A DNA stretch of 64,000 nt from an uncultured Acidobacteriota bacterium. GTDB taxonomy: Bacteria > Acidobacteriota > Vicinamibacteria > Vicinamibacterales > Fen-181. The position numbers and the translations under genes are program-made. The DNA lies in assembly GCA_963727765.1 (NCBI GenBank), contig CAVSGZ010000007.1, positions 82,826 to 146,825 of the forward strand, read 5' to 3'. How positions within the stretch are numbered: the stretch's first letter is position 1; the number at the start of each line of letters is the position of its first letter. This document shows, piece after piece, positions 22,862 through 46,772 of this stretch. The notes beneath the pieces are model-generated. The model saw nothing but the letters and a program-made list of their open reading frames with translations, was not told the origin of the DNA and searched no databases.

Positions 22862-23178
22862 AGGATTCCCTCGTTGTCGACCGAGGCCTGCGCCAGGTGT
22901 CCGACGCCACTTGCTATCGCAACCACGATGCCAACGCGGATTGCATAGTTCTCTGGGAGTTTCCAGCGGATGGCCAGGCCCGACGACGAGAACGTCCCCA
23001 ATCGAGGACATCGATCGTTCGCAGCCTGGTCTGTGGTAGGAGACATTGCGGGGGATTTTCCCTTGGCCCGGAAATTGATCTTGCTCGAATGCGGTGGCTC
23101 GCTCCATTCTGGAGGACGAGCCAGTCTGTCACCGGAAGCGGAGTGCGGGACTAACAGCAGACAAGATAGCGAGGTCGT

Positions 23179-27801: not shown

Positions 27802-28455
27802 ATGTCACAGCAGCGCGTGGAGACCGTTCGTGCCATCGAGGCGTGCGGCGTGGTGGCGGTTATTCGGATGCGCGAGACCGGAAGGCTCCGGGCCGTCGTG
27901 GATGCGCTCGGTGAGGGTGGCGTTCGGGCGATCGAAGTGACGATGACCGTGCCCGGCGCGATCGATCTGATCGGGCAGCTGGCGCCGACGCTGCCCAGGG
28001 GATTCATCCTGGGCGCCGGGACGATCCTCGACGCCGAGACGGCGCGACTGGCCATCCTCGCCGGCGCGCAGTTCATCGTCGGCCCGGTGTTCAGGCCGGA
28101 AGTCATCGCGATGTGCCACCAGCACGACATTGCGGCCATGCCGGGCTGCTTCACCCCCACCGAAATCCTCTCGGCCTGGGAGGCGGGCGCCGATGTCGTG
28201 AAGGTCTTCCCCGCCATGGCCCTCGGCCCCGGGTTCTTCAAGGATGTGCGCGGGCCGCTGCCGCAGGTGAAACTGATGCCGACCGGCGGGGTGTCGCTCG
28301 ACAACGCGGGCGACTGGATCGCCGCGGGTGCCGTGGCGGTCGGCGTCGGCACGGCGCTGCTCGACGCGGCGGCGATCGCGGCCGGCAACTACGCCGTGAT
28401 TACGGCGAACGCGAAGCGGATCGCCGGAAGCGTTGCGGCAGCCCGCGCAAAGTGA
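27802..28455 (+). CDS. eda: KDPG / 4-hydroxy-2-oxoglutarate aldolase
   Basis: VVAVIR, IEVT, GAGTILD, VKVFPA and MPTGGV motifs of class I KDPG aldolases. 217 aa. Confidence 0.9.
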   Translation: MSQQRVETVRAIEACGVVAVIRMRETGRLRAVVDALGEGGVRAIEVTMTVPGAIDLIGQLAPTLPRGFILGAGTILDAETARLAILAGAQFIVGPVFRPEVIAMCHQHDIAAMPGCFTPTEILSAWEAGADVVKVFPAMALGPGFFKDVRGPLPQVKLMPTGGVSLDNAGDWIAAGAVAVGVGTALLDAAAIAAGNYAVITANAKRIAGSVAAARAK

Positions 28456-28469
28456 CGAAGGGGACCTCG

Positions 28470-29498
28470 ATGGCCAAAGTCGTGACGTTCGGCGAGATCA
28501 TGCTGCGGCTCAGCCCGCCGGGATTCGAGCGCTTTCTTCAGTCGTCGGTCCTCGGCGCAACGTTCGGCGGGGGCGAGGCGAACGTCGCCGTCAGCCTGGC
28601 CCATTTCGGGCTCGAGAGCTACTTCGTCACCCGGCTGCCGACGCACGCGATCGGCGAAGCCGCCGTGAGGTCCGTGCGGGCCGAGGGGGTGCGCACCGAT
28701 TTCATCCAGCGCGGCGGCAGCCGCGTCGGCATCTACTTCGCCGAATCGGGAGCCAGCCAGCGCGGGTCGGCCGTCATCTACGATCGCGCGCACTCGTCGA
28801 TCGCGGAGATGCAGCCTGGCACGGTCGACTGGGCCAGGGTGTTCGAGGGCGCGGCCTGGTTCCACGTGACGGGGATCACGCCGGCGCTCGGCGCGAGCGC
28901 GGCGGGATGTACCCGCGAAGCCGTCGCCGCAGCCCGTGCGGCGGGTGCGCGCGTCAGCGTTGACCTCAACTACCGCAGGAAACTGTGGACCCAGGCCGAG
29001 GCGCAGTCAACGATGCGGCCGTTGATGGCGTCGGTCGACCTCGTGATGGCCAACGAGGAGGATCTGCAGTCGGCGCTCGGCCTGGACGTGCGCGGCACCG
29101 ACGTCACGGCGGGGCAGTTGAACCTGGCGGGCTACCGCGAGGTCGCCGAGCGGGTGACGCGGGATCTTGGGCCGAAGAAGGTGGCCATCACGCTGCGCGA
29201 GAGCCTGTCGGCCAGCGACAACGGTTGGAGCGCCGCGCTCTGGGATGCGGAAACTGGCGCCTTCCATCACAGTCAGCACTACACCGTGCGCCTGGTTGAC
29301 CGGATTGGCGGAGGCGACAGCTTTGCGGCCGGACTGATCTACTCGCTTCTCGACGGCCGCGCCCCGGAGGCGGCTTTGCGCTTCGCCGTCGCGGCCAGTG
29401 CCCTGAAGCAGACGATCCCGGGCGATTTCAACCGCGTGACGGTTGCCGAGGTGGACGCGCTCGCCAATGGGGACGCGTCGGGGCGGGTGGCGCGATGA
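28470..29498 (+). CDS. kdgK: 2-dehydro-3-deoxygluconokinase (PfkB family)
   Basis: ATG 28470 within track ORF 28113..29498. MAKVVTFGEIMLRLSPPGFERF...GGGEANVAVSLA. PfkB signature DRIGGGDSFAAG. Confidence 0.85.
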   Translation: MAKVVTFGEIMLRLSPPGFERFLQSSVLGATFGGGEANVAVSLAHFGLESYFVTRLPTHAIGEAAVRSVRAEGVRTDFIQRGGSRVGIYFAESGASQRGSAVIYDRAHSSIAEMQPGTVDWARVFEGAAWFHVTGITPALGASAAGCTREAVAAARAAGARVSVDLNYRRKLWTQAEAQSTMRPLMASVDLVMANEEDLQSALGLDVRGTDVTAGQLNLAGYREVAERVTRDLGPKKVAITLRESLSASDNGWSAALWDAETGAFHHSQHYTVRLVDRIGGGDSFAAGLIYSLLDGRAPEAALRFAVAASALKQTIPGDFNRVTVAEVDALANGDASGRVAR

Positions 29499-30871
29499 GG
29501 ATCGACTCGAAGGTGAGGCCAGCCGTGCTGGCCGCGAAGATCGACCGGCTCTGGGACTTGTCGGCGGCGAAGATCAGGGCCATCGAACGCCGTCACGGGT
29601 CGTCCAGAGAGACCCTCGTGCACACCGTCGATGGCCGCTACACCTCCCGCGGCTGGACGGAGTGGACGCTCGGCTTCCGGCACGGATCGGCGCTGCTCCA
29701 GTTCGACGCGACCGGCGACGAGCGGTTCCTCGATCTCGGACGGCGCCGCACGCTCGAGTCGATGGGCCCGCACCTCACGGACACCGGGGTCCACGACCAC
29801 GGCTTTACGATCGTCAGCACCTACGGCAATCTGCTGCGCCTGGCGCGCGAAGGGCGATTCGAGCATGACGCGTGGGAGCGGCGCTGCTACGAGACGGCGC
29901 TCGTCTGCTCGGCCGCCGTCCAGGCGCGGCGGTGGACGGCGCTCGGTGAGGGCGAGGGCTTCATTCACTCGTTCAACGGGCCGCAGTCGCTCTTTGTCGA
30001 TACGGTCCGCACGCTCCGGTCGCTCGCGCTCGGCCATCGCCTCGGGCACGTGCTGCTCGAAGAGGGCGGCCGGCGCGTATCGCTGCTCGACCGGCTCCTG
30101 ATGCACGCGCGATCGACGGCCCGGTTCCTCGTGTCGGATGGCCGCGGGCGCGACATCTACGCGGCGCGCGGGCGGGTGTCTCACGAGGCTATCTTCAATG
30201 TCACGGATCGCAGTTTCAGGTGCCTGAGCACGCAGCAGGGCTACTCCCCGTTCAGCACGTGGATGCGCGGCCTCGCCTGGGCGATGTGCGGCTTCGCCGA
30301 GCAGCTCGAGTTCATGACCACGGTGAGCGACCAGGAGATCGCCTCCGCGGGCGGGCGCCGGGCGACCGCCGCGTTCATGAAGCGGGCCGCAACCGCGGCG
30401 TGCGACTACTACCTTGCGAACACGCCGACCGACGGCGTCCCGTACTGGGACACCGGTGCGCCGGGTCTCCACCGCCTTGGCGACTATCTCGCGAAGCCCG
30501 CGGATCCGTTCAACCCGTACGAGCCGGTGGACAGCTCGGCGGCGGCAATCGCGGCGCAGGGTCTCCTTCGCCTCGGCCACTACCTCCGGCGGGACGAACC
30601 GGCGCGTGCGCGTCGGTACTGGCAGGCGGGGCTGACCGTCATGCGCACGCTCCTGGACGAGCCGTATCTCGGCGTCGACCGTCGCCACGAAGGCCTGCTC
30701 CTGCACTCGGTGTATCACCGGCCCAATGGCTGGGACGCCGTCCCGCCGGGCCGGACGGTGCCGTGCGGCGAGTCCAGCCTGTGGGGCGACTACCACATCC
30801 GCGAGGCGGCCCTCTACCTGCAGCGCGTCATCCGGCGCGAGCCGTACCTGACTTTCTGGGGACCCGCATGA
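29495..30871 (+). CDS. GH88-like unsaturated glucuronyl hydrolase family protein
   Basis: 458 aa, (alpha/alpha)6-like. DHGF, WMRGLAWAMCGF, DGVPYWD, VDSSAAAIAAQGLLRL and ESSLWGDYHIREAL resemble GH88/GH105 motifs. ATGA overlap with kdgK. Confidence 0.7.
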   Translation: MRIDSKVRPAVLAAKIDRLWDLSAAKIRAIERRHGSSRETLVHTVDGRYTSRGWTEWTLGFRHGSALLQFDATGDERFLDLGRRRTLESMGPHLTDTGVHDHGFTIVSTYGNLLRLAREGRFEHDAWERRCYETALVCSAAVQARRWTALGEGEGFIHSFNGPQSLFVDTVRTLRSLALGHRLGHVLLEEGGRRVSLLDRLLMHARSTARFLVSDGRGRDIYAARGRVSHEAIFNVTDRSFRCLSTQQGYSPFSTWMRGLAWAMCGFAEQLEFMTTVSDQEIASAGGRRATAAFMKRAATAACDYYLANTPTDGVPYWDTGAPGLHRLGDYLAKPADPFNPYEPVDSSAAAIAAQGLLRLGHYLRRDEPARARRYWQAGLTVMRTLLDEPYLGVDRRHEGLLLHSVYHRPNGWDAVPPGRTVPCGESSLWGDYHIREAALYLQRVIRREPYLTFWGPA

Positions 30872-31302
30872 CGATCATCGATCTCGCCGCCACTGAGGGA
30901 CGCCGCTTTCCCGCAGGACGCCGCACGAAGAACGTCATCGGCGGGCAAGCGCCGGCGCAGTCCGCTCATTTTGCAATGGGCGTGGTGACGCTCGACCCGG
31001 ACGGCGGGCAAGTGCCCTGGCACAGCCAGGAACAGGAAGAGGTGTATCTCATCGTCGAGGGCTCGGGCGAGATGTGCCTCGGCGGCGAGCGCGCAGTTCT
31101 CGGCGCGGGCCAGGCGGTTACGATTCCGCCCGGGGTCTTCCACCAGATCACCAATCTCGGACAGACGCCGCTGACGCTCGTCTACTGCTACGGCCCGGCC
31201 GGCGAGGTCGCGCACTGGCGGCAGGAGCTCGACGGCACGCTGCCGCGCGCCGGCGTCGACGCGCCGCCGCTGCCGGAGGGCGCTCGGCCGCAACGGGCGT
31301 AA
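30868..31302 (+). CDS. cupin-domain protein (KdgF-like role inferred from context)
   Basis: ATG 30868 overlaps the upstream stop (ATGA). Cupin_2 core: VPWHSQEQEEVYLIVEGSGEM...GQAVTIPPGVFHQITNLG. Confidence 0.7.
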   Translation: MTIIDLAATEGRRFPAGRRTKNVIGGQAPAQSAHFAMGVVTLDPDGGQVPWHSQEQEEVYLIVEGSGEMCLGGERAVLGAGQAVTIPPGVFHQITNLGQTPLTLVYCYGPAGEVAHWRQELDGTLPRAGVDAPPLPEGARPQRA

Positions 31303-31319
31303 GCGAGGGGGGACACGAC

Positions 31320-32471
31320 GTGACCACCTGGCGCATCGGCGTCATCATGAACGGCGTCACCGGCAGGATGGGCGCCAACCAGCATCTCCTGCGCTCGATC
31401 GATGCCATCCGCCGCGACGGCGGCATTGGTCTGCCCGACGGCAGCGTGATCGTGCCCACCCCAATTCTTGTCGGCCGCAACCCCGCGAAGCTCGAGGCGC
31501 TGGCTGCCCGTTCGGGAGGGCCGCCGTGGACCACCGATCTCGACACGGCGCTGGCCGACCCGGATTACGCTGTCTACTTCGACGCGCAGACCACCGACCG
31601 GCGCGCGGCCGCTGTCCGGCGCGCGATTGCCGCAGGAAAGCACGTCTACTGCGAGAAGCCCGCCGCGGCGACGCTCGCCGAGGCCCTCGACCTCTACCGA
31701 CTCGCCCGCGACGCGGGCGTCAAGCACGGCGTGGTTCAGGACAAGCTCTGGCTGCCGGGCATCATCGCCCTGAGGCGACTGTGCGCGAGCGGGTTTTTCG
31801 GGCGCATCCTGTCGGTCCGCGGCGAGTTCGGTTACTGGGTGTTCGAGGGAGACAGCATCCCCGCGCAGCGCCCGTCGTGGAACTACCGCGCCGAGGACGG
31901 CGGCGGGATCATCGCCGACATGTTCCCCCATTGGCGCTACCTGCTCGACGAAGTCTTCGGCCGGGTCACTGCCGTCTCGTGCCTCGGCGCCATGCACGTC
32001 GGCCGACGCTGGGACGAGGCCGGCCGGCCCTACGACTGCACCGCCGACGATGCGGCCTACGCGACGTTTGAACTCGAGGGCGGGATCATCGCCCAGTTCA
32101 ACTCGTCGTGGTGCGTCCGCGTTCGCCGCGATGACCTGCTGACCATCCAGGTGGATGGCACGAAGGGTTCGGCGGTGGCCGGCCTGCGAAACTGCTGGGT
32201 GCAACCCGCCGCTTCCACTCCGCGGCCCGTGTGGAATCCCGATGTCGCGACGCAGGGAGACTACCGCGCCGACTGGCAGCGGCTGCCCGAAGTCGAGGGC
32301 CTCGGGAACGCTTTCCGGGTTCAGTGGGAGCTGTTCCTGCGGCACGTCGCATGCGGCGATCCGTTCACCTGGGACCTGCTCGCGGGTGCGAGGGGTGTGC
32401 AACTGGCCGAGTTGGGGACCGAGTCCTGGCGAACGAGAAGCTGGGTGGCGGTGCCGCCGCTCAATCCGTGA
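31320..32471 (+). CDS. Gfo/Idh/MocA-family NAD(P)-dependent oxidoreductase
   Basis: GTG 31320 lies after GAGGGGGGA. Rossmann motif IGVIMNGVTGRMG and EKP motif VYCEKPAA. 383 aa. Confidence 0.8.
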   Translation: MTTWRIGVIMNGVTGRMGANQHLLRSIDAIRRDGGIGLPDGSVIVPTPILVGRNPAKLEALAARSGGPPWTTDLDTALADPDYAVYFDAQTTDRRAAAVRRAIAAGKHVYCEKPAAATLAEALDLYRLARDAGVKHGVVQDKLWLPGIIALRRLCASGFFGRILSVRGEFGYWVFEGDSIPAQRPSWNYRAEDGGGIIADMFPHWRYLLDEVFGRVTAVSCLGAMHVGRRWDEAGRPYDCTADDAAYATFELEGGIIAQFNSSWCVRVRRDDLLTIQVDGTKGSAVAGLRNCWVQPAASTPRPVWNPDVATQGDYRADWQRLPEVEGLGNAFRVQWELFLRHVACGDPFTWDLLAGARGVQLAELGTESWRTRSWVAVPPLNP

Positions 32472-32478
32472 GGAGACG

Positions 32479-33255
32479 ATGACACAGGCACGCGTGGCGC
32501 TTGTCACCGGGGGCACGCGCGGGATTGGCCTCGCCGTCGCCGAATGCCTGGCGCGCGAGCAGTTCGATCTGGCGGTGTGCGGGCGGCGGGAGGAGGAGGC
32601 TGTTGCCGGCGCCCTCCAGTCGCTGAGGCGCCAGGGCAGAGACGTTGTCTACTGCCGCTGCGACGTCGCAGACCGCGCGGCGCGCGAGGCGCTCGTGCAG
32701 TCGGTTCGCGACCGGTTCGGCCGCCTCCACGTCCTGGTCAACAACGCCGGGATCGCGCCGCCCGAGCGTCGCGATCTCCTCGAGGCCTCCGAGGACAGCT
32801 TCGAGGCCGTGCTGCGCACGAACCTCCAGGGGCCGTATTTCCTCACCCAGGCCGTGGCGCGGTGGATGATCGATCAGCGGCGCGCTGACGCGTCCTTTCG
32901 CGGCTGCATCGTCAACGTCTCGTCGATTTCGGCGACGACCGCGTCGGTGAACCGCGGCGAGTACTGCGTCGCCAAGGCGGGCCTGGCCATGGCGACCCAA
33001 CTCTGGGCGGCCAGGCTCGGCGAATGGAACATTCCGGTCTACGACGTCCGACCCGGCATCGTACGGACGGACATGAGCGCTGCAGCCGAGGCCAAGTACG
33101 ACCGCCTGATCGCCGACGGCCTGCTCGTCCAGCCGCGCTGGGGGCTGCCCGATGATGTTGGGCGCGCCGTAGCGATGCTCGCGCGGGGCGACCTGGCGTA
33201 CTCGACGGGCCAGGTGCTCATGATCGATGGCGGCTTCAACGTGCGCCGGCTGTGA
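32479..33255 (+). CDS. short-chain dehydrogenase/reductase (KduD/FabG-like)
   Basis: ATG 32479 lies after GAGGAG. TGGTRGIG, NNAG and YCVAKAG (YxxxK) motifs. Confidence 0.85.
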   Translation: MTQARVALVTGGTRGIGLAVAECLAREQFDLAVCGRREEEAVAGALQSLRRQGRDVVYCRCDVADRAAREALVQSVRDRFGRLHVLVNNAGIAPPERRDLLEASEDSFEAVLRTNLQGPYFLTQAVARWMIDQRRADASFRGCIVNVSSISATTASVNRGEYCVAKAGLAMATQLWAARLGEWNIPVYDVRPGIVRTDMSAAAEAKYDRLIADGLLVQPRWGLPDDVGRAVAMLARGDLAYSTGQVLMIDGGFNVRRL

Positions 33256-34369
33256 CGTCGCGCGGGGGATAAACGCACTCGCGCGCCTCGTCCGCGAACG
33301 CGCGCAGGAGGGCGTCGTCGGCCTCGAAGAAATGGTCGGACGGCGCCAGGATGTAGCCGCCCCCGCCTCCAGCATCTTCGAACAACCGGCGCACGGCCTG
33401 TCGGGTTTGGTTTTCCGGGCAGCCGACGAAATCGTTGAACTGGTCGAAGCCGCCGATCATGCACACGCGGGCGCCCACGAGCCGTTTCGCCTCTGCCATC
33501 CTCGTGTCTCCACCCATAGCCGGCGGAGTGAACGTCTCCATCGCGTCGGGGCCCATCTCCGCAATCCGCTCGAGAAATGGCATCATCCCCCCGCACGTGT
33601 GGTAGACGATGCGCAGGCCGGACTGGTGGGCGGCCGCGATGAGCGGGGCGTCGAACGGGGCGACGAAGCGGTCGAAGATCGGCGGCGAGATGACCGTGGA
33701 CGACGCGTCGCCGCCGCCGAGTTCGACAAGGTCGAACGCCGAGCCGCGGGCCGACTGGAGGAAGCGGAGCTTCGGGCGCTGGAGGAATGCCAGCAGCGCG
33801 CCGACCCAGCCTGCGTCGTTGAAGGTGGCGAGGATCAGCGGTTCAATTCCGAACAACACCGCCGCGTCCTGCCAGCAGCCGGGTTGACCGTAGACTGGGA
33901 ATCCCGGCACCGCGCCACGGACGATCCCACGATCGCCGAACTCGGCGGCGGCCGCGGCGACGGCCGCGACATCGCAGATGGGCTCCAGGTCGATCGCGGT
34001 GAGGACATCGAGGTCGCGCTTGTCTTTGAGCAGGCGCTCCCGCACCCAGGCCGTCCGGCCGTCGTCCTGCAGCAGGGTCGTGAGCGTGCCGCGCGGTGTC
34101 ACGAAGCGGTAGCGTGTCGTCTTGTAGTCGGGGTCGGCGACCTCCTCCGCCTCGAGGCGCCAGGCGGGGCCGCCGGCCTCGATCGGGCGGCGCAGCGGCG
34201 TCGTCCAGTGGATCGCATCGAGGCCGTAGCGGTCGAAGAACTCGATCTCGGTGGCGCAACCGGCCTGCCGGAGGAACGACGGCATCAGGTGGTGCGTCGT
34301 GGCCGGCAGACGGTCGGGGACGCCGCGATCGAGGGCGGTGAGCAGTCGCCGGCGAGACGTCCAGCTCAT
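33236..34369 (-). CDS. uroporphyrinogen-decarboxylase (URO-D) superfamily protein, paralogue 1
   Basis: 377 aa. TIM-barrel URO-D/MtaA-like pattern (...LVELGGGDASSTVISPPIFDRFV...VYHTCGGMMPFLERIAEMGPDAMETF...GGFDQ...). Its 3' end overlaps the convergent SDR gene by 20 nt. Confidence 0.65.
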   Translation of the reverse strand: MSWTSRRRLLTALDRGVPDRLPATTHHLMPSFLRQAGCATEIEFFDRYGLDAIHWTTPLRRPIEAGGPAWRLEAEEVADPDYKTTRYRFVTPRGTLTTLLQDDGRTAWVRERLLKDKRDLDVLTAIDLEPICDVAAVAAAAAEFGDRGIVRGAVPGFPVYGQPGCWQDAAVLFGIEPLILATFNDAGWVGALLAFLQRPKLRFLQSARGSAFDLVELGGGDASSTVISPPIFDRFVAPFDAPLIAAAHQSGLRIVYHTCGGMMPFLERIAEMGPDAMETFTPPAMGGDTRMAEAKRLVGARVCMIGGFDQFNDFVGCPENQTRQAVRRLFEDAGGGGGYILAPSDHFFEADDALLRAFADEARECVYPPRDVTAGAR

Positions 34370-36669
34370 CCCATCACCTGGCCGGCCATCCGCATCATGT
34401 AGTCGTGGTCGATGTAGGGGTCGTCGTCTTTGTGCCGCTCCATCAGCGCGAGCCGCGTGGTGAGGAGGGCGTGAAGGTTGCGGCCGTGAATCAGCGGCGA
34501 CTCGCCGAGGTCGGTCGTCGCCATGAACTCCACTGGGCCGTCGATAAGCGATAGCAGGCGCCGCGTGTTCTCCATCTCGCGCTCGATCGCGTCGGCGAGG
34601 CGGGCGCAGTGACGGGCCTTCGACGTGTCATCGGCAGCCTCGAGCCACCCGTAGACGCTCGCCACCCAGGCGGCGAGGTTGCGCTGCGTTTCGAGCCAGC
34701 AGCGGAGCGCCTTCAAGCGCGCCAGTTGGTCGGTGATGACGCCCGGCTTGCCGAGTTCCGCGGCCGCGCCGGAGAGCGGCTCGAGACGCGCGATCGCCGC
34801 GTCGAGCGGAGCGAAGACGCGGGCATCCATCCGCTCCACGTCCCTGCTCGCCTGCGCCGGCTCGATCAGGCGGAACAGCACGTCGCGGCTCAGGTCCACG
34901 TTGTTCGGGTTGTGCGGGGTGGTGCACATGAAGCGCTCGTAGTACGCGCGCTCCTCCGCGGGGATCGCCTCGATGTTCGGCACCAGCGGTCGCGCCCAGA
35001 GGCGGTACCACGCAAAGCCGATCGTCGAGTAGAGCGTGCAGATGTTCGGAAACGAGAGGATCGCGTCCTCGGCGAGGCGCCACGCATCGATGAGCGCCGG
35101 GGCATGTTCGTCGCCAGCCCAGGCGCGCGCTAGGCGGTCGATTTCGGCGTCGATGTCCATCCCGGGATCGAACTCGAAACGGCGGAGGATCTCGTGGTTG
35201 ACGTTGAACGGCACGATTTCGGGCGGACACGTGCCGCCAATCTGGGCGAGCTCCCGCACGCCGTTTCGATGGAGCAGGGCGAGGCGCGTGTGGGTCAGCG
35301 TCGGGTACGGCACGCCCAAGAGCGGCGCGAACATCTGGTGCGGGCCGACCGCGGTGTAGAAGTGAGCGGCGGACGACCGACCGCGAAGATCCGCCATCAG
35401 GGTCCGCTCACGCTCGTCGAACGCCTGCTGAAAAATCGTGCCGCTGTTGATCGAATGCGAATCGGGGTAGCGCGGGTGCGTGTAGGGCATCTGCCAGCCC
35501 CGAGCCACCAGCGACGTCGTCTCCACCTCCACGCCGTCGCCGAGACCCTTCCAGAGCGTGTCGTGCTCGCCCATGAACGACTCGAGGCGAGTGATCACGC
35601 GGAAGCCGGGCGACACGGTGCGGGCTGCGTCGCGGAGCGTGCGGAAGAAGAGGAGCGCGTGCTCGCCGGCGACGCGGGCGATGGCGTCGTGGTCGCGCCA
35701 TTCGCGGACCATGTAGGGGCCGCCGTTGCGCCCGACGTAGAGCGACGTCGTGTGCTCGAAGCCCGAGCCGCTGTCGTTGGTCCAGATGGTCAGGAACCCG
35801 AGATCCGGGACTTCCGCGAGCAGCTTCGTGAGCATCTCCGCGTAGTGGTCGCGGACCAGCGGGTGGGCCAGTGTCATCGTGTAGCGCGGCTTGAACGAGC
35901 GGAAGGGATGGTCCACGCGGGCGCCGCGGAGCATCGGGTACCTGGCGAAGAACTCCTCCGGCACCGACCGCGGTTCGAAGCAGAGCAGGCCCGGGATGAG
36001 GCCGTACTTGCGGGCCAGGGCGGCGTTTCGCTTGAGGAACGCCAGGTTCGCCGACAGGTAGTAGGGAGGATAGAGCCCGCAGTTCAGCGAGGAGTCGATG
36101 AACTGATCGAGCGCGGGGCAATAGGTATAGAACATCGGGTACACCTCGCCCTTGGGTCCTGTCTCGAGGCTCATGGGATAGGCGAGGCCGTTCACCTCGA
36201 TGTGGGTGAAGCCTGACGTGGCCAGGCGCCGCACGTAGGTATCTCGATTGAGGCCGTGCTGGATGCGGGCCTCTTGCGTCAGGAAGATGTCGTAGCACGA
36301 GCGGTTCCAGCTGAACGTCGGTTGGACCAGCAGCGCGCCGCCGGCAGGAAGCGGTTGTTCGCCGAGGACGTCAAAGACGTACATGGCGGCACCGAACAGG
36401 CCGGGAGCGGCTGTCGACTCGAGCAGGCCGGAGCCGTCCTCGCCGAACTCGGCCCGCACCGGCGCCGGGCCGTCGGAGGCGGCGCCCTGCGGCGCGCCCG
36501 CGACCCTGATGCGGAAAACTCCGGATTCGGCTCTGCCGGCTGTGGAGCCGACGGAGACCGGAGCACCGCTTCTCCGCTGCAGGTCCTCCGCCACCGTGCG
36601 GCACACGAGCGGGCAGCCCTCGTCGAGCGTGATCTCGCGAATGCGAGCGAGTGCTTCTGCGACTGTCAT
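34366..36669 (-). CDS. 767-aa conserved-looking protein of unknown function (possible TIM-barrel glycan-active enzyme)
   Basis: Long uninterrupted ORF with balanced composition. Segments GFTHIEVNGL, LLCFEPRSVPEEFF and LTIWTNDSGSGFEH suggest beta/alpha-barrel strands ending in acidic residues. No signal peptide. Confidence 0.7.
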   Translation of the reverse strand: MTVAEALARIREITLDEGCPLVCRTVAEDLQRRSGAPVSVGSTAGRAESGVFRIRVAGAPQGAASDGPAPVRAEFGEDGSGLLESTAAPGLFGAAMYVFDVLGEQPLPAGGALLVQPTFSWNRSCYDIFLTQEARIQHGLNRDTYVRRLATSGFTHIEVNGLAYPMSLETGPKGEVYPMFYTYCPALDQFIDSSLNCGLYPPYYLSANLAFLKRNAALARKYGLIPGLLCFEPRSVPEEFFARYPMLRGARVDHPFRSFKPRYTMTLAHPLVRDHYAEMLTKLLAEVPDLGFLTIWTNDSGSGFEHTTSLYVGRNGGPYMVREWRDHDAIARVAGEHALLFFRTLRDAARTVSPGFRVITRLESFMGEHDTLWKGLGDGVEVETTSLVARGWQMPYTHPRYPDSHSINSGTIFQQAFDERERTLMADLRGRSSAAHFYTAVGPHQMFAPLLGVPYPTLTHTRLALLHRNGVRELAQIGGTCPPEIVPFNVNHEILRRFEFDPGMDIDAEIDRLARAWAGDEHAPALIDAWRLAEDAILSFPNICTLYSTIGFAWYRLWARPLVPNIEAIPAEERAYYERFMCTTPHNPNNVDLSRDVLFRLIEPAQASRDVERMDARVFAPLDAAIARLEPLSGAAAELGKPGVITDQLARLKALRCWLETQRNLAAWVASVYGWLEAADDTSKARHCARLADAIEREMENTRRLLSLIDGPVEFMATTDLGESPLIHGRNLHALLTTRLALMERHKDDDPYIDHDYMMRMAGQVMG

Positions 36670-36687: not shown

Positions 36688-36716
36688 CAGATAGCGCAGG
36701 GCTTCAGCCCTGCGCC
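36688..36716 (+). repeat. REP-like palindromic element, copy C
   Basis: CAGATAGCGCAGGGCTTCAGCCCTGCGCC, with stem GCGCAGGGC/GCCCTGCGC and loop TTCA. Nearly identical to the two copies at 45310-45387, in opposite genomic orientation. Contains the stop codon (36704-36706) of the PLP-enzyme gene. Confidence 0.75.
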
Positions 36717-37993
36717 TGGACCGCGACCTCCCTGATCAGCCTGTCCACTTCCGCGTCGGTGTTGCAGACGTGGAAGGACGCGCGAACGGCGTCGAGCCCC
36801 GCTTCGGTCACGCTGCGGACGCGGAGGCGTCGCCCGGTCAGCGCACCTGCCACCTGCCGGTTGTCGCGCCCGGGAATCCTGAACGTCACCATGGCCGATC
36901 GGGCCTCGGGCTCGGCCGGCGAGAGCAGGTCCACTGACTTCTGCGCCTGGAGCGCGCTGCGGAACCGCTCGGCCATCGCCTGGTTGTGCTGCCAGATCCT
37001 CGGCAGGCCGAGGGCCGCGACGAAGTCCATCGCCGATTCGATGCCGTAGATGAGCGCGGCGTTCTGTGTCCCGTACTCAAACCGCTGAGCCTCGGTTCGA
37101 AGCGTCAGCTTCCGTTCCGCCAGCGACGTCGCCTGGTCCGAGTAGGCGCCGAGGACGACCGACCCCACCTCCGGCAGGCGGTCCTTCCGGACGTACAGAA
37201 TGCCCGTCCGTTTCGGGCCCATCAGGAACTTGTGGCAGCTTGCGGCGTAGCAGTGTGCGCCGGTTGCCGCGATGTCGATCGGAAACTGCGCCAGCGACTG
37301 CGCGCCATCCAGGGCGAACCACACGCGCCGCTCGGCGGCGAGGCGGCCGATCTCGGCCACCGGCAGGATCTGCCCGGTCGTGCACGTCACGTGACTGACG
37401 AAGATCAGACGCGTGCGAGGCGTCAGCAGCGCGCGAATGCGTTCCACGCTGCCCGTCCGGGTGCCGAGGTCGGGCTCGAATGTCCGCACGACGATGCCGG
37501 CGGTGCTGATCTTGTGGAGCAGCGGGATGACCAGCGCCGGGTGTTCGTGCGTCGAGGTGATGACCTCGTCGCCAGCCTCGAGCGGCAGGCCGTTGAGGAC
37601 GATGTTGATGCCCTCGGTGGCCGTGCTCACCAGCGCGATTTCTCCTGCCGAGCACGAGGGCCCCAGCAGCGACGCGCACTTGCCGCGAATCCGCGTCCAG
37701 TCACTCTCGCTGTGGCCCGGGCTTGGAGACCGTTCCTCCCTGTCCATCTCCGACTTGACCCGGTCGCTGACCGCGCGCGGCGAGGCACCAAGTCCTGCGG
37801 TGTTGAAATACGCGTAGTCAGCCGGGAGTTGGAACTGCTGCCGAAGATCGCGCCACGGGTCTGACGTCGCCTGGAGGCGGTGCGCGACGTCACTCGCAAC
37901 AGTGCCGGCCGCATCGGGCGGGAGCATCAAGGCGCCGGCGGCAGCACCGAGGCCCGCCAGGAAGCCGCGTCGTTCGATCATCGTGTCCGCCAT
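36704..37993 (-). CDS. class V aminotransferase-fold PLP enzyme with twin-arginine (Tat) signal
   Basis: ATG 37993 within track ORF 36704..38284. MADTMIERRGFLAGLGAAAGALMLPP (RR motif). PLP-lysine motif ASCHKFLMGPKRTG. Cysteine-desulfurase/epimerase-like fold. Confidence 0.8.
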   Translation of the reverse strand: MADTMIERRGFLAGLGAAAGALMLPPDAAGTVASDVAHRLQATSDPWRDLRQQFQLPADYAYFNTAGLGASPRAVSDRVKSEMDREERSPSPGHSESDWTRIRGKCASLLGPSCSAGEIALVSTATEGINIVLNGLPLEAGDEVITSTHEHPALVIPLLHKISTAGIVVRTFEPDLGTRTGSVERIRALLTPRTRLIFVSHVTCTTGQILPVAEIGRLAAERRVWFALDGAQSLAQFPIDIAATGAHCYAASCHKFLMGPKRTGILYVRKDRLPEVGSVVLGAYSDQATSLAERKLTLRTEAQRFEYGTQNAALIYGIESAMDFVAALGLPRIWQHNQAMAERFRSALQAQKSVDLLSPAEPEARSAMVTFRIPGRDNRQVAGALTGRRLRVRSVTEAGLDAVRASFHVCNTDAEVDRLIREVAVQAQG

Positions 37994-39582
37994 CACTGAA
38001 GTGCGATCGTGAAGCCGGCGGTTCCGTCCACGTGAGTCTCGAAGTCGGCGTACCGGCTGGCCTCGACCACGGACTGGGCGAACGGCACATCGCGCGCGCC
38101 ATGCCGCACAGCGCAAACGTCTGAGCCGGCCGGGAGCAGCACGTGGAGCCGCACGTCGGCCGCGGCCGCCTCGACCTCGATATCGATCCGGTCGCCGGCG
38201 TGCCGGAACGAGTAGCCGATCCCCCGCCCCGACGCCGCGTAGCGGACCGACGCCTCCGCTTCGGAGAGGCCGGCGGCCACCCATCGCGGCGCCAGCGTCA
38301 CCGCGTCAAAACCGCAGCCGTCGTCCACGATCCCCGCGAGGCCTTCGACCAGCGCCCAGAGCATGGCGCTCGATCCCCACCCGTCGGTGGGCAGCGCCTC
38401 CGGGCTCGTGCTGGTCTCGACGCTGGCCGCGGCCCCGTCGGGGAAATACCACAGGTAGGTCTCGCCCTTCGGCGAGATGAGCCGGTGGTACTGCTCGAGG
38501 ATCTCGATGCCGTACGCTTCGAACCCGTGCTCGAAAGCCGCGCGGGCCAGCTCGCCGCCGACGAGCGGCATGATCCCGCCATTGCAGTAGGCCCCGGCGA
38601 CCAGGCGCTCGTCGCCGAAGATGCCGTCGGGAAACGGCGGGTCGATGGCAAACCACTCCGCGAACGCGCCGGTGGACTGGCGCCGGCGAAGGTACTCGCG
38701 GAGGATCGACGCCGCCTGCTCGTGGTCGGCCACCCCGCGGTTAACGTCCATCGGGTTGCTCAGGCTGAGCTGCGACGACTCGTCCACGCCCTCGATGGTG
38801 ACCGGCGTCAGCTTCACGAAGTGCGTGTAGAAGCGACCGTTCCAGCACGCCCGATTGAGGTTGGTCCGAATCTCGACCGCACGGTCTTCCCAATACGCGC
38901 CGCGCGCGGCGTCACCGAGGCGTCGGCAAAGCCTCGCCAACAGGCGATACGCCTCGTAGTAGCCGCTGTTGTCGCCGTGCATCAGGCCCCAGTACGTGTC
39001 GTCGGTAATCTGGAACTGCAGCCAGTCGTGCCGTCCTGCCGTGTACGCGAAATCCCAGGTGTCGATGGTGTAGGCCCGCTTCACGAGGCCGTGCGTCTCG
39101 TCCCAGTACCACGGGTGGTTCCGGATGTAGGCCATCGCCCGCTCGAGGCTGGGCAGCAGACCGCGAATCCAGGCGTCGTCGCCCGACGCCTGCCAGGCGA
39201 GGTAGGCGCCCTTGACGAAGCGATACTCGACGTCGGCCTCGACCGGGACGCGCACGTACTTCGTCCAGTTCTCGCGTTCGCTCGGCGGCTTCTCGGGAAA
39301 CGTCGTGTAGTAATCGAATACGCGACCCGTCGCGGCCTGCGTGTCGGCGAAGTGCTGCACGGCGCTCGTGAGGTCGGGCTCGAAGTACCGGAACCCGCGC
39401 ATCATGTCGCTGTGGTCGCGGATCCAGATCGACTTGGCGTCGGGCGTGCGGTAGCCGCGGATCCGCCGGCCGTCGATCGTCAGGTCCAGCCGGTCGTGCT
39501 CCAGGAACGCCCGGACCGCGGGGTAGAGGTCGTCGAACGCCGGCCGCCCGGTTCTGATCGAGACCTCACTTGCTTGGCGCAT
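37993..39582 (-). CDS. (alpha/alpha)6-barrel glycoside-hydrolase-like protein (family not assignable by eye)
   Basis: 529 aa, no signal peptide. ...AYCNGGIMPLVGGELARAAFEHG... and ...TDGWGSSAMLWALVEGLAGI... are typical of six-hairpin glycosidases. Its stop shares one base with the downstream start. Confidence 0.6.
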   Translation of the reverse strand: MRQASEVSIRTGRPAFDDLYPAVRAFLEHDRLDLTIDGRRIRGYRTPDAKSIWIRDHSDMMRGFRYFEPDLTSAVQHFADTQAATGRVFDYYTTFPEKPPSERENWTKYVRVPVEADVEYRFVKGAYLAWQASGDDAWIRGLLPSLERAMAYIRNHPWYWDETHGLVKRAYTIDTWDFAYTAGRHDWLQFQITDDTYWGLMHGDNSGYYEAYRLLARLCRRLGDAARGAYWEDRAVEIRTNLNRACWNGRFYTHFVKLTPVTIEGVDESSQLSLSNPMDVNRGVADHEQAASILREYLRRRQSTGAFAEWFAIDPPFPDGIFGDERLVAGAYCNGGIMPLVGGELARAAFEHGFEAYGIEILEQYHRLISPKGETYLWYFPDGAAASVETSTSPEALPTDGWGSSAMLWALVEGLAGIVDDGCGFDAVTLAPRWVAAGLSEAEASVRYAASGRGIGYSFRHAGDRIDIEVEAAAADVRLHVLLPAGSDVCAVRHGARDVPFAQSVVEASRYADFETHVDGTAGFTIALQ

Positions 39583-41986
39583 CGATGGTCACCGTGTCGC
39601 GGAAATACCGGACCTTGTCCACGCCGGCCGTGTCGGTCGAGGCGTCGAACGGGAGCCCGTGGAACGACAGCCCGTTCTGGAACAGCACGCGATCGCCATA
39701 CTGGGCGCGGGTCATGTTGACGATGCTGTAGGTGAGCTGGCGGCCTTCTTCCGAGAGAAAGACCAGGTCGCCGTCGGTCAGCACTGGCCCGTAGCCGATC
39801 TTGCCCTTCTCGAACAGGTAGCGCGGGCGCCGGTAGTCGCGCGCGATGTCGAGGCGGAGATCCTGCTTCGCGCCGATGATGATCCGTCGCCCGCCGGCCT
39901 CGATCTGGACCGCCAGGCCCGACGCGGTCGGCACGGTCTCGACCAGCGAAACCCGCCGGGCAAGCTCGGCCGGCGCCACGTCCTTGGCATGCGGGATGAG
40001 CACCGTCACCATTCCCTCGGTCTGGGTCGGCTCGAAGTGCCGCGCCACCGCCTGGTAGATCGCCAACTCGTCCTGGCCGTGGCGCTTCTGCGGTTCCACA
40101 CCTTCCATTCGGAAGTGGCTCTGTGGGAACACGATCAGCAGGCGCTTGGCATCCGGGAACGCCGTGGCTCCGACGACGTCGTACGCCGTGTCGTACCAGT
40201 GGTCCCCGCGCGCGACGATCTGGCGTGTGTGCCAGAGATTGGCCAGCGTGAAGTACTCCGTGGCCCTCGACTTGAACACGTCGAAGACGACGAACATCTC
40301 GGGGTCCTTCAGGTAGATGACCACGCGGTCGGCGTCGTAGCCCCAGCCATCATCGAGCAATCGTGTCCGCGCGTAGTCGAACTCCGGCTGCTGCAGGAAG
40401 TCCACCTTGCGCGTGCGCACGGGCCGGTACGAGCCCGCGTCGCGCATGAACTCGAGCAGCGGCTGCTGCGGGATGGGCCCCTTCTGGCTGTAGCGTTCCT
40501 CGTTCGCCTTCTGGCCCATCCAGATCTTCTCGGGGCGCACGCACAGGCGGTTGTGGAAGTAGTCCTGGCGATAGGCACCGTACGGGCCGCTCGGCATGTA
40601 GTCGCGGTACCCGCCGTCGTGGAGCAGCAGCGACCCGCCGCTCATCAGCATGGGGATGCTGTTCTCGTCGGCGTGGCCGTGCGTCATCTTCTCTTCCTCG
40701 ACCGGGATGCTGTCGCGGAGGTAGTCGCGGAAGTTCATCCCGCCGTCGCCCTCATCGCGATAGGTCAGCAGCAGGTAGGTGGAGTCGGGCTTCCAGCCGT
40801 TTCGAAAGACCACCTTCTTGCCCTGCACGTCCTCCATGACTTCGCCGCTCAGGCTCACGGGCGCGCGTGGGGCGATGTCGTCGCGGCCCCAGCGATACGC
40901 GTCGAGCAGGAAGCACCCGAGGCCGGCGCTGGTGGGCCTGGTCAGATCGACGTACCGCGCGGCGATGCGCTGGGCCGCCCACTTCAGCTCGGGGTCGTTC
41001 AGCCGGGCGGCCGCCGTTTCGAAGAACACCAGGAAGTGCTGCCAGTTCTGGGACCAGGCCGCGTCGCCGAAGTCAGGCACCATGTCGCCCGGCGACATCA
41101 GGTTGAGGAAGTACTGGGCGTAGTAGAACACCTCCGGGGTTCGGAAGAGGTCCCCGGTCCTGTCGAGCGCGTCCGCATAGCCGAGCAGCGAGTAGAGCCA
41201 GACGCCGTGGTAGATGGTGGCGTCCTCGATTTCCCAGTGGCCCCAGTTGTCGTCGCCGAGCGCGCGGCGCTGCAGTTCCCAGCGTGCGGCGCGGGGATGC
41301 TTCGGCATCGCGCGAACGGCCCACGCCAGCGTCTCCGCGCGCAGCATCGCGCGGTTCATGGCGCCCCACTCCGAGGTCTGCAGCAGGTAGTCGATGCTGT
41401 GGCCGGCCAGCGCCTCGATCTTCGCGGCCTCGGCCGGCGTGAGCTGACCGAGCCGGTGAAGCGTGTCGTAGGCCCGGAGGTAGCGCATGACGACGAAGAA
41501 GTCGGGGAGCGCGGGCACGCCGTTCGCGTAGTCGGGCCGCGCCTTCGCCGCCAACTCGGGGTACTGGGACCGGTAGTCGCCGTACGTGAGCAGCACGTGT
41601 TTGGTGCGCTCGGCGTAGACGGGGTTGCGCTCCAGCTCGTAGAGCGTCGAATAGATGGCGGCCAGGTCGATCAGGTCCCCCGGCCCCCGGTAGCCGAACG
41701 GGCTGGCCGGGTCGAACGTCTGCCGCCAGCGAGCGAGGTTTTCCTCGCGATGGTCCCAGGCGTAGTCAGCCGATGCGCGGGCGTAGGCCAGGTAGTCGGC
41801 GCGCGTGACGGCGATGCCCGGCGCCACGGCCGTTCGTGCTGCCGCGGCCTGTTTGCCCTTCGCCTGGGGCTTCTGCCCCGTTACCGATCCGACCGACGCT
41901 GCCGATTGTGCATCGAGGCTCCGGAGCGCGGCACCGGCCGCGACCACGAGAACGCCCGCCGCAATGAGTGTGCTGACGCCGCGCAT
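39566..41986 (-). CDS. secreted heparinase II/III-like (polysaccharide-lyase-like) protein
   Basis: Signal peptide MRGVSTLIAAGVLVVAAGAALRSLDAQS. An alpha/alpha toroid-like N-half, then THGHADENSIPMLMSGGSLLLHDGGY, which resembles the heparinase II/III C-domain motif. Confidence 0.6.
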   Translation of the reverse strand: MRGVSTLIAAGVLVVAAGAALRSLDAQSAASVGSVTGQKPQAKGKQAAAARTAVAPGIAVTRADYLAYARASADYAWDHREENLARWRQTFDPASPFGYRGPGDLIDLAAIYSTLYELERNPVYAERTKHVLLTYGDYRSQYPELAAKARPDYANGVPALPDFFVVMRYLRAYDTLHRLGQLTPAEAAKIEALAGHSIDYLLQTSEWGAMNRAMLRAETLAWAVRAMPKHPRAARWELQRRALGDDNWGHWEIEDATIYHGVWLYSLLGYADALDRTGDLFRTPEVFYYAQYFLNLMSPGDMVPDFGDAAWSQNWQHFLVFFETAAARLNDPELKWAAQRIAARYVDLTRPTSAGLGCFLLDAYRWGRDDIAPRAPVSLSGEVMEDVQGKKVVFRNGWKPDSTYLLLTYRDEGDGGMNFRDYLRDSIPVEEEKMTHGHADENSIPMLMSGGSLLLHDGGYRDYMPSGPYGAYRQDYFHNRLCVRPEKIWMGQKANEERYSQKGPIPQQPLLEFMRDAGSYRPVRTRKVDFLQQPEFDYARTRLLDDGWGYDADRVVIYLKDPEMFVVFDVFKSRATEYFTLANLWHTRQIVARGDHWYDTAYDVVGATAFPDAKRLLIVFPQSHFRMEGVEPQKRHGQDELAIYQAVARHFEPTQTEGMVTVLIPHAKDVAPAELARRVSLVETVPTASGLAVQIEAGGRRIIIGAKQDLRLDIARDYRRPRYLFEKGKIGYGPVLTDGDLVFLSEEGRQLTYSIVNMTRAQYGDRVLFQNGLSFHGLPFDASTDTAGVDKVRYFRDTVTIDAPSK

Positions 41987-43000: not shown

Positions 43001-44251
43001 CGACTCCTCCCGCCCGCACGCCCAGGACCGCCGCGGGGATACGCGTCGTAGCCGTCGAGATCCACCGGCACACCGGCTCGCGCCCAGCTGATGTCCGCCT
43101 CGGACGGGAGCAGGTGCCGCTCATGGCATCGGCTCAGCGTCTCGTCCAATTCCGGCACGAAGCGTCGCCCCGCCTGGTCGTCGCTGACCACGACCGCATC
43201 CGGGAACGAGATCGGCTCGCACACCGATTCGTGCATGCCGTTGACGACCAGCGTCTGGGCCAGGGCCGCCTCCGGACCGCAGACGACCGTCGCCGGAGAT
43301 CGTATCGCGCTGACGGCATCGAACAGCTTCTTGAACTGCGGGCTGTCGTCTGGGGCGCCGTAGCGCTTGACGTGACCCGCCGCGTCGCGTGCGATGATAC
43401 CTCCCGCCATCGCGTCGAACGTCACCGATGCCGTTTCGAACTCGAGCGTGAAGCGCGGCTCGATGGCGGTCTCGGTGACGTGCGAGGCGTACATCAGGAC
43501 TTCCAGCCCGGTATCGGTCGTCACTCGACAGGCCGCGGTATCGCACGATTCGATTGGGTAGGCACGGTACAACTCGGCCTGCACGGTGCGCGGCCTGGCG
43601 CTCAGGTGGATGTCCGGGCCGCCGAGATAGAGCAGGTTGTGGAGAAAGTGGGCCATCGCGTTGTTCGCCGGTCCGTCGAGCACCCACCTGCCCGTCGCCG
43701 GGTCCCTCAGCCGTCCTGCCCACTGGTTCCGCTGATAGTACGACAGGTGACGTGGCCAGCAGCACAGTGTCGAGAAGCGGGCGGGGCGACCGAACAGCCC
43801 GGCGAGGATGTCTCGCTTCAGGGCCTGAATGGCCGTCGAGTACCGACCACTGGTAGCCGACCATCACGAAGCGGCCCGAGCGATCGCGCGTCGAGATCAG
43901 TTGCGTCGCCTCCTGCACGGTCGCGCCGAGCGGCTTGTCGCAGAGCACGTGAGACCCGTGCTCGAGCGCGGTGCAGGACTGGGGGACGTGATGTTGAATC
44001 GGGGACACGATGACCGCGAGGTCGGCCTCGTGTCCGGCCGCATAGAAATCGGCCACCTCGCCGAAGACCGGCACGCCTCGCGCCTCCACCCACGACCAGG
44101 CCCGCGACGCTCGCGCCTCCGGGTCCACCACTCCGGCCAGAATCGCCCGCTCCGCCGGAACCTCCTCGAGGAGCGTCTGCAGGTAGTAGTGGCCGTAGCC
44201 GCCAATCGCGACCATGAGCACCCGGACGGGGTTTTCCTTCCCGAGCATCAT
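42997..44251 (-). pseudogene. Gfo/Idh/MocA-family oxidoreductase, single-nt frameshift as read
   Basis: N-part from track ORF 43121..44251 (VLMVAIGGYGHYY, VLCDKPLG). C-part in the frame of ORF 42997..43683. Joins as ...FVMVGYQWS/YSTAIQALKRDILAGLFGRPARFSTLCCWPRHLSYYQRNQWAGRLRDPATGRWVLDGPANN.... One extra base near 43843-43846. Confidence 0.75.
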
Positions 44252-46767: not shown

Positions 46768-46772
46768 CGGCG

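Follow-up and report, generated by a model that had tools for sequence, protein, structure and literature searches.

The stretch of DNA described here, referred to as the window, comprises 64,000 nucleotides from an uncultured Acidobacteriota bacterium of the Vicinamibacterales (assembly GCA_963727765.1, contig CAVSGZ010000007.1, positions 82,826 to 146,825 of the forward strand) and has a G+C content of about 68%. Among its genes is one for a protein with the fold of the uroporphyrinogen decarboxylase (URO-D) superfamily, termed paralogue 1, which forms the final gene of a tightly packed eight-gene minus-strand operon (Table 1). The intergenic gaps along this operon, from the mannosidase gene of glycoside hydrolase family 38 (GH38) to paralogue 1, are −4, 120, 3, −17, −4, 34 and −4 nucleotides. 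Paralogue 1 has a GC content by codon position of 0.70/0.51/0.87, the coding pattern of this 68% GC genome. Its start codon ATG (34369-34367) shares four nucleotides, ATGA, with the TGA stop codon (34368-34366) of the preceding open reading frame (ORF) of 767 codons, and the Shine-Dalgarno-like sequence AGGTGA lies 4 nucleotides upstream of the ATG. An initial annotation of this DNA had placed the gene at the end of a glycan operon and proposed its translational coupling to the 767-residue protein, and both statements agree with the sequence. At the opposite end, the 3′ ends of paralogue 1 and of the convergent SDR gene overlap by 20 nucleotides.

Table 1. Genes and residues discussed in the text, in window coordinates.
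Feature	Position	Strand	Remarks
GH38 α-mannosidase	44248..47322	(-)	First operon gene as read here; Pfam match
Gfo/Idh/MocA oxidoreductase	43121..44251	(-)	4-nucleotide overlap (44248-44251) with GH38
URO-D-fold paralogue 2, 336 residues	41990..43000	(-)	16% identical to paralogue 1
806-residue protein	39566..41986	(-)	Weakly heparinase II/III C-terminal-like, E=0.0012, below threshold; conserved in operon
529-residue protein	37993..39582	(-)	Weakly MGH1/GH63-type (α/α)6 hydrolase-like, E=0.001, below threshold
Class-V aminotransferase-fold PLP enzyme	36704..37996	(-)	Twin-arginine-like N-terminus MADTMIERRGFLAGLGAAAG
767-residue coupled protein	34366..36669	(-)	Probable glycoside hydrolase of GH138/GH115-like architecture; no Pfam family
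URO-D-fold paralogue 1, 377 residues	33236..34369	(-)	ATG-started ORF; proposed corrinoid-type methyltransferase
Codons of Y256-H257-T258-C259-G260-G261	33587..33604	(-)	His-x-Cys aligned with MtaA LHICG zinc ligands
Codon of Glu278 (AMETFTPP)	33536..33538	(-)	Candidate fourth metal ligand
Codons of A342-P-S-D345-H346-F-F	33326..33346	(-)	Asp345 at third MtaA zinc-ligand position (Cys of APGCG)
Convergent genes: 458-residue protein of no known family, MocA oxidoreductase, SDR	29495..33255	(+)	
KDPG/KHG aldolase and KDG-kinase-like PfkB kinase	27802..29498	(+)	Keto-deoxy sugar acid end pathway

Two further features of the paralogue 1 region concern its reading. An antisense ORF of 391 codons, also ATG-started, runs across the gene (33227-34402, plus strand) with a GC content by codon position of 0.86/0.51/0.71; because these values mirror those of paralogue 1, the ORF is marked as a shadow of a high-GC gene and not as a gene of its own. 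A twin-arginine translocation (TAT) signal was considered for the N-terminal SRRRLL and dismissed, as this stretch corresponds to a helix at the N-terminus that is conserved across the URO-D family (TSRERLLAAL).

Paralogue 1 is a divergent member of the URO-D superfamily, as had first been supposed. The Pfam model URO-D (PF01208) matches it at E=1.4e-12 and 47.7 bits, above the gathering score of 23.9, with an alignment that covers only residues 220-344, and the same domain is carried by all 120 of the best homologues listed. The AlphaFold2 model, built from an input alignment of 39 sequences, has a pLDDT of 95.5 and a pTM of 0.93. In a Foldseek search its top match is the methylcobalamin:coenzyme M methyltransferase MtaA (4ay7), and the 26 best matches are MtaA and uroporphyrinogen decarboxylase (UROD) chains with probability 1.00, TM-scores of 0.61-0.72 (by query or target length) and 10-18% identity; cobalamin-independent methionine synthases rank lower. 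By this model the whole protein is confirmed as a predicted (β/α)8 barrel of the URO-D type, with a four-stranded β insertion at residues 69-110. As a single sequence paralogue 1 retrieved nothing relevant from the PDB sequences, whereas the family profile matched MtaA 4ay7 at E=2.9e-22, the best UROD at 1.8e-16 and CdmB, a first methyltransferase (MT-I) acting on chloromethane, at 2e-10. All NCBIfam matches are far below their cutoffs and weakly of the MtaA/CmuA type, so that no name is assigned; the MtaA equivalog, for instance, scores 26 bits against a cutoff of 400.

The active site contains a predicted metal site at the ligand positions of MtaA. Profile alignment places VYHTCGG of paralogue 1 (His257 and Cys259) on the LHICG of MtaA, and Asp345 of APSDHFF on the Cys of APGCG. 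Of the MtaA zinc ligands, which the initial annotation had named as a point of comparison, the His and the first Cys are thus kept, while the third position is taken by Asp345, with His346 adjoining, instead of Cys. Glu278 sits 19 residues past Cys259, a spacing similar to that of the Glu ligands in MtaA (Glu263) and MetE, which are its possible counterparts; this equivalence is a candidate one, drawn from the spacing after the His-x-Cys motif alone, where no clean alignment is obtained. Conservation was read from an alignment of 83 sequences, made up of the window protein and 82 orthologues drawn from many phyla. His257, Cys259 and Glu278 are invariant in 83/83, and Ser344, Asp345 and His346 are present in all 82 sequences that have those columns. 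Further invariant polar residues are H26, D51, W108, R151, Q162, W166, Q167, D168, D213, E216, D288 and Q310, a set that would be typical of sugar pockets. Paralogue 1 is best explained as a cytoplasmic, metal-dependent enzyme of the MtaA/MT-I branch of the URO-D superfamily that would use a cobalamin (corrinoid) cofactor.

The family of paralogue 1 is large, tight and widespread. More than 3,000 proteins matched it, the best 120 at 66-91% identity; at 50% clustering only 64 clusters lie below 1e-30. A scan of one genome for each of 185,579 GTDB species confirmed at least 578 matching stretches. The best 80 of these all come from metagenome-assembled genomes (MAGs), and their best aligned segments are 51-89% identical to paralogue 1, the nearest being that of a fen Acidobacteria MAG (89%). 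They belong to Acidobacteriota, Ignavibacteriota, Bacteroidota, Chloroflexota, Planctomycetota, Verrucomicrobiota, Clostridia and others. For a survey of genomic context, homologues of the window operon were located in 84 fetched loci (given L-numbers here), and neighbouring ORFs were clustered and named by Pfam and NCBIfam. An operon of the window type, with paralogue 2, the 806-residue and 529-residue proteins, an optional aminotransferase, the 767-residue protein and paralogue 1, is found in the Acidobacteriota loci L001, L003, L005-L009 and L014 and partly in L016 and L072. As a universal context of the family this arrangement was ruled out, since the 767-residue gene occurs in only 12 of the 84 loci.

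Elsewhere the neighbours differ, and every informative context is a carbohydrate locus. Chloroflexota orthologues stand with GH38, GH31, sugar ABC transporters, MocA, β-helix and GHL10-like proteins and two more URO-D paralogues, and others adjoin GH172 (DUF2961), GH127 or xylose-isomerase-like TIM barrels, with MocA and SDR enzymes also among the neighbours. The most frequent neighbours are isomerase-like, namely a cupin in 18 loci and the xylose-isomerase-like barrel. Glycoside hydrolases and sugar kinases make up the setting of the family in Acidobacteriota, Chloroflexota, Ignavibacteriota, Bacteroidota and Gemmatimonadota. The initial annotation had counted a constant haem or methyl-transfer setting of the orthologues as a point against its reading, and on this the outcome is mixed. 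Haem genes are absent from all 25 recurrent neighbour families, and a corrinoid protein stands beside about 14% of the orthologues. Tandem arrays of five to six URO-D-fold paralogues were seen in Chloroflexota (L070:2871-11155, L073:6703-12407 and L018:1075-12252). The array of L018 is interleaved with two GH38 genes, and in L070 a B12-binding domain (11418-11687) follows immediately downstream. These arrays resemble the MT-I gene arrays of O-demethylating acetogens.

UROD (HemE) itself shares the fold of paralogue 1, with TM-scores in the range given above, and its N-terminal motif PDR.P. The Arg pair of its MRQAGRY motif (human Arg37/Arg41) binds the substrate carboxylates. In profile alignment this motif falls on TTHHLMPSF of paralogue 1, where His27 and Ser31 replace the pair; alignments to 4wsh, 6w2o and 3cyv set MRQAGRYLPEY opposite the ihqlmpsflrkyl of the family, and paralogue 1 there reads TTHHLMPSFLRQ. 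For UROD Asp86 and Tyr164 (human numbering), the N-terminal third of paralogue 1 aligns too poorly for residue-level assignment, and no Asp is found at the expected +7 spacing after its conserved LDA motif, as read from the sequence. Because the substrate-binding Arg pair is replaced, paralogue 1 is, judged by its sequence, no uroporphyrinogen decarboxylase. That it is a true HemE or a decarboxylase of sugar acids is highly improbable, even though the Pfam family bears the name URO-D, UROD structures fit the model almost as well as MtaA does and a keto-deoxy sugar-acid end pathway lies next door. The hemE model TIGR01464 is not among the NCBIfam matches, the best profile match is the methyltransferase MtaA and not UROD, and the neighbourhoods hold no recurrent haem genes. 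UROD moreover needs no metal, whereas the family of paralogue 1 has an invariant His/Cys/Glu/Asp cluster, and UROD chemistry needs the protonation of a pyrrole ring, for which uronates have no equivalent. The decarboxylation that had been suggested at first is not supported.

A link to corrinoid proteins is seen in other lineages. Within the fetched stretch, 11 of the 80 species loci encode a B12-binding protein or domain with a DLHDIG motif. In Ignavibacteriota, Bacteroidota and Clostridia-like MAGs the orthologue belongs to a cassette, which in L042, L048, L026 and L082 comprises, in order, a corrinoid protein, a Met_synt_B12 reactivation domain, a ribokinase, in some loci RbsD, a cupin and, at its end, the orthologue. 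The corrinoid protein consists of B12-binding_2 and B12-binding domains with the DLHDIG motif, the reactivation domain is of the MetH type (PF02965), the ribokinase matches TIGR02152 at 377.6 bits (cutoff 299.65) and the cupin is weakly D-lyxose isomerase-like. In L042 the orthologue is followed by a monosaccharide-type ABC transporter. Locus L066 places the orthologue directly next to genes for a corrinoid protein and a reactivation domain. Five loci (L011, L026, L042, L048 and L071) have enough flanking sequence to judge, and the stretch fetched for each of them holds no methyltransferase candidate other than the orthologue. Two additional URO-D paralogues come after the orthologue in L047 and L082.

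Another example is found on the Gemmatimonadales contig Ga0373563_0000271 (L085/L088), which was reached through distant homologues of the 767-residue protein. The operon of L088 is of the window type and contains an SSF transporter, an aminotransferase, an 806-like protein (41%), an M20 peptidase, a 529-like protein (66%), the 767-residue homologue and an orthologue of paralogue 1 (57% identity) that overlaps the latter by 4 nucleotides; GH38 and MocA genes lie downstream on the opposite strand. Its first gene (L088:1-1480, plus strand), read without its first 93 residues, encodes a 586-residue fusion of B12-binding_2 and B12-binding domains (DLHDIG), a Pro/Ala-rich linker and a URO-D domain. 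This last domain is 53% identical to paralogue 2 of the window over the 155 C-terminal residues compared. Nearer relatives of paralogue 2 (at least 63% identity) are all unfused and about 336 residues long. Taken together, the orthologue cassettes and the L088 fusion show that in other lineages each of the two URO-D families found in the window operon has a physical connection to corrinoid modules.

Corrinoid-dependent demethylation involves an MT-I, which is substrate-specific, and a second methyltransferase (MT-II), and the evidence bears on which of the two paralogue 1 would be. As an MT-II it would, like MtaA, pass a methyl group from a methyl-corrinoid to a metal-activated thiol such as homocysteine, a coenzyme M-like compound or another small thiol; the sugar-specific MT-I would then be paralogue 2 or further URO-D paralogues. 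In a variant, an MtsA-like enzyme would carry out both half-reactions on a methylthio compound, for example a methylthio-sugar. The best solved relative, MtaA, is itself an MT-II, and a His/Cys/acid metal site as in MtaA and MetE is the classical thiol-activating site; the corrinoid domain of L088 is fused to paralogue 2 and not to the family of paralogue 1, and the additional paralogues of L047 and L082 also fit. An MT-II is nevertheless unlikely. The orthologue is the sole methyltransferase candidate in five loci, where it lies within a sugar uptake and catabolism operon, and since the substrate-specific component is the one expected in such an operon, this was counted in favour of an MT-I. 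The pocket, with its invariant Trp, Gln, Asp, Glu and His, is typical of sugar binding, and Asp takes the place of one of the two Cys ligands.

The reading preferred here is that paralogue 1 is a corrinoid-dependent methyltransferase which takes the methyl group off an O-methylated sugar that the neighbouring glycosidases set free, a proposal that we regard as having an even chance of being right; in the specific chemistry our confidence is moderate. In this mechanism, cytoplasmic glycosidases of the operon (GH38, the GH63-like, the heparinase-like and the GH138-like 767-residue protein) would release an O-methylated sugar, which would enter the polar pocket of the TIM barrel. A metal held by His257, Cys259, Glu278 and Asp345 would polarise the methyl-bearing oxygen, and attack on the methyl carbon by the Co(I) of a corrinoid protein would yield methyl-Co(III) while freeing the sugar. 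The demethylated sugar could then enter ordinary catabolism through the oxidoreductases, kinase and aldolase encoded next door, and the methyl group would be passed to an acceptor, perhaps through paralogue 2. The data show the fold, the invariant ligand pattern, the structure of the operon, its carbohydrate setting across many phyla and the corrinoid link of both paralogue families in other lineages. We infer that a sugar donates the methyl group, in which direction it moves, which metal takes part and what accepts the methyl group, and the corrinoid partner would be encoded elsewhere in the genome. Removal of a methyl ether, one of the reactions first suggested, is in this way supported indirectly: the MtaA ligand positions are filled and invariant, operons in other lineages combine corrinoid, MetH-type and sugar genes, and L088 encodes a fusion of B12-binding and URO-D domains. 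Its restriction to a sugar acid is not established, as uronates are suggested by the orthologous cassettes no more strongly than ribose-type and other neutral sugars.

Several observations weigh against this proposal. No B12-binding corrinoid protein, MetH-type reactivation domain or cobalamin riboswitch is present in the 64-kb window, none of these occurs within 10 kb on either side in any Acidobacteriota locus (L001, L003, L005-L009 and L014), and 69 of the 80 species loci lack a corrinoid gene in the fetched stretch. No methyl acceptor enzyme, such as a pterin-binding MT-II, was seen in the orthologue loci. The predicted metal site departs from that of MtaA in its third ligand, and paralogue 1 scores only 32.7 bits against the MtaA/CmuA family TIGR01463, whose cutoff is 235.4. 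Nor do the contexts (mannosidase, ribokinase, uronate-type end pathway) converge on one substrate despite the invariant pocket. Ribokinase and RbsD are cues for ribose, GH38 for mannosides and a KDG/KDPG end pathway for uronates. No single substrate stands out, given that ribokinase/RbsD, GH38, GH31, GH127, GH172 and the KDG/KDPG pathway all adjoin orthologues with identical pocket residues. The substrates of URO-D-type MT-I known to us are aryl methyl ethers and methyl halides, and no described precedent for Co(I) cleavage of an aliphatic sugar methyl ether was found in the literature.

These points leave room for an enzyme that is independent of cobalamin, in which the URO-D barrel and its metal site would have been reused for the isomerisation, epimerisation or hydration of a sugar or for the hydrolysis of a methyl ester, and the corrinoid genes, in the loci where they occur, would work with neighbouring paralogues or have no connection to it. 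The 86% of loci with no corrinoid gene nearby, including all those of Acidobacteriota, the isomerase-like character of the commonest neighbours and a His/Cys/Glu/Asp set unlike that of any characterised corrinoid methyltransferase argue for such an enzyme, which we consider rather unlikely. Every superfamily member with a characterised function, URO-D, MtaA, MT-I and MetE among them, is either a decarboxylase or a methyltransferase (PMC13222342). In L066 the gene of the paralogue 1 family directly adjoins those for a corrinoid protein and a reactivation domain, with nothing else, and the sharing of an operon by the three in about 10 species of several phyla is far above expectation for so rare a type of protein.

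Among characterised systems, MtaA/MtbA (4ay7; TIGR01463) gives the best match in profile and fold. It shares with paralogue 1 the URO-D TIM barrel, the His-x-Cys at the same position and an acidic residue on the next strand, and with the family a link to a corrinoid protein bearing a DxHxxG motif. The two are only 14% identical, and paralogue 1 differs in its Asp for Cys as third ligand and in its β insertion. MtaA belongs to methanogenesis, whereas paralogue 1 occurs in sugar-catabolic operons of soil and sediment bacteria, where no coenzyme M context was seen.

The system that paralogue 1 most plausibly works like is, by analogy, the MT-I of bacterial O-demethylases and dehalogenases, represented by OdmB, VdmB, MtvB, MtoB, CdmB (9rui) and CmuA. 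The MT-I of these corrinoid-dependent enzymes are members of the UroD superfamily, and zinc is present in some of them (PMC13222342). With the family of paralogue 1 they share the superfamily, seemingly substrate-specific arrays of paralogues, a corrinoid protein, whether separate or fused, and a means of reactivation. They differ in their known substrates, which are aryl methyl ethers and methyl halides, in their hosts (anaerobic acetogens, organohalide respirers and methanogens) and in relying on an ATP-dependent activator of the RACo type where the cassettes of the paralogue 1 family have a MetH-type domain dependent on S-adenosylmethionine. A full demethylase set of MT-I, corrinoid protein, MT-II and activator is not present in the window, which holds two URO-D-fold candidates only.

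O-methylated sugars are common in nature. Xylans and arabinogalactans, for example, contain 4-O-methyl-glucuronate, rhamnogalacturonan II carries 2-O-methyl-xylose and 2-O-methyl-fucose, and 3-O- or 6-O-methyl-mannose occurs in glycans of algae, fungi and mycobacteria. Among sugar demethylases we know only of an oxygen-dependent cytochrome P450, which reportedly demethylates 6-O-methyl-D-galactose in the utilisation of porphyran. Like the proposed enzyme it removes a methyl ether for the catabolism of a glycan sugar and is encoded in a glycan-utilisation locus. Its fold is unrelated to that of paralogue 1, however, and its reaction is oxidative, depends on O2 and redox partners and releases formaldehyde, in contrast to methyl transfer to a corrinoid.

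More broadly, URO-D-fold methyltransferases in glycan operons of phyla dominant in soil, peat and sediment may belong to a widespread and unrecognised corrinoid-dependent demethylation pathway for O-methylated sugars, a suggestion that we put forward tentatively and with some doubt. The phyla concerned would be Acidobacteriota, Chloroflexota, Ignavibacteriota, Bacteroidota, Gemmatimonadota, Planctomycetota and Verrucomicrobiota. The proposed novelty is a corrinoid methyltransferase system with a new class of substrate and a new ecological setting. If it exists, it would be the first case in which aliphatic methyl ethers of sugars are cleaved by Co(I), and would add carbohydrates to the aryl ethers, methyl halides, amines and thiols known as substrates of corrinoid methyltransferases. 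Cobalamin availability would be tied to polysaccharide turnover, part of the degradation of soil polysaccharides would hinge on vitamin B12, and methyl groups of glycans would flow into one-carbon metabolism. Such a pathway would be relevant to the use of O-methylated sugars in anoxic and micro-oxic soils, peat and sediments, and would explain a class of misannotated 'uroporphyrinogen decarboxylases' in glycan loci. The literature, in which subscription papers were incompletely covered, yielded no account of proteins with the URO-D fold in glycan loci, nor of sugar demethylation that depends on a corrinoid. The paper on the mlp cluster (PMC10418091) deals, by its abstract, with methyl-sulfur and methyl-selenide metabolism and was judged to be unrelated.

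The protein coupled to paralogue 1 has more than 1,600 homologues, annotated as hypothetical, yet no Pfam domain and no sequence match in the PDB. Its AlphaFold2 model (pLDDT 76, pTM 0.85) comprises an N-terminal α/β domain, a barrel and a helical bundle, with low-confidence loops that preclude the naming of catalytic residues. The best Foldseek match of this model is the GH138 enzyme BP0997 (query TM-score 0.54-0.55), followed by GH84, GH20, GH89 and GH115. BP0997 targets the rhamnogalacturonan II of pectin. The 767-residue protein is most likely, on the strength of its model, a glycoside hydrolase of an undescribed family, and would define a new glycoside-hydrolase-like family. The 529-residue gene is kept beside it in 11 related loci and also in L086-L088.

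Other members of the operon also suggest links between enzymes. On a related contig of 1.28 Mb (L001:1-1093, plus strand), GH38 and the Gfo/Idh/MocA oxidoreductase form a single protein of 1193 residues, and this fusion suggests that the oxidoreductase acts on the substrate or product of the mannosidase. In paralogue 2 the ligand positions are swapped relative to paralogue 1, reading His-x-Asp followed later by Cys. For the aminotransferase-fold gene, 37996 or 37993 is a more likely start than the far-upstream ATG at 38284. Its start, MADTMIERRGFLAGLGAAAG, matches the Pfam model TAT_signal at E=0.005, below threshold, and a pyridoxal phosphate (PLP) enzyme with an export-like signal is odd within an otherwise cytoplasmic-looking sugar operon.

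The convergent plus-strand genes are functionally linked to paralogue 1. In the Bacteroidota locus L031, homologues of the 458-residue protein and of the MocA and SDR genes lie co-directionally and directly upstream of the orthologue, and for this reason the plus-strand cluster and the adjoining KDG-kinase and KDPG-aldolase genes are tied, at the level of gene order, to the putative pathway. The 458-residue protein is also kept beside MocA and SDR genes in L005, as it is in L031. The aldolase ORF (27802-28455) and the PfkB ORF (open from 28113, with the domain from about 28470) overlap in different frames, and the kinase matches positions 221-580 of the NCBIfam model for a KHG/KDPG aldolase/sugar kinase fusion protein at 522 bits (cutoff 700). 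They are two neighbouring genes or else one fusion that has been split or frameshifted.

The remainder of the window was scanned through its long ORFs of coding-like composition, which cover most of the 64 kb. As the initial annotation had stated, no haem or corrinoid gene lies near paralogue 1: no haem-biosynthesis gene is found among these ORFs, and neither a lyxose-isomerase-like cupin nor a third URO-D paralogue was found. The GH88 enzyme that it had mentioned was not detected by Pfam among the ORFs scanned. The sole Rfam match in the window is a tRNA gene (54459-54544, minus strand, 54.3 bits), with no riboswitch upstream of the sugar operons. Four ORFs of coding-like composition have no Pfam match (29495-30871, plus; 46773-48812, minus; 52156-54297, plus; 56382-58529, plus), and the same holds for the long ORFs 21902-23107 (minus) and 23179-24333 (plus). 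The sugar genes of the window are flanked by two SSF-family sodium:solute symporters (759-2813 and 49829-51997, both minus strand) and a TonB-dependent outer-membrane barrel of the CarboxypepD_reg type (8439-11420, plus strand). Homologues of the second symporter adjoin the 529-residue, 767-residue and URO-D genes in L016 and L072 and the orthologue in L019, and this symporter may be the importer of the pathway substrate.

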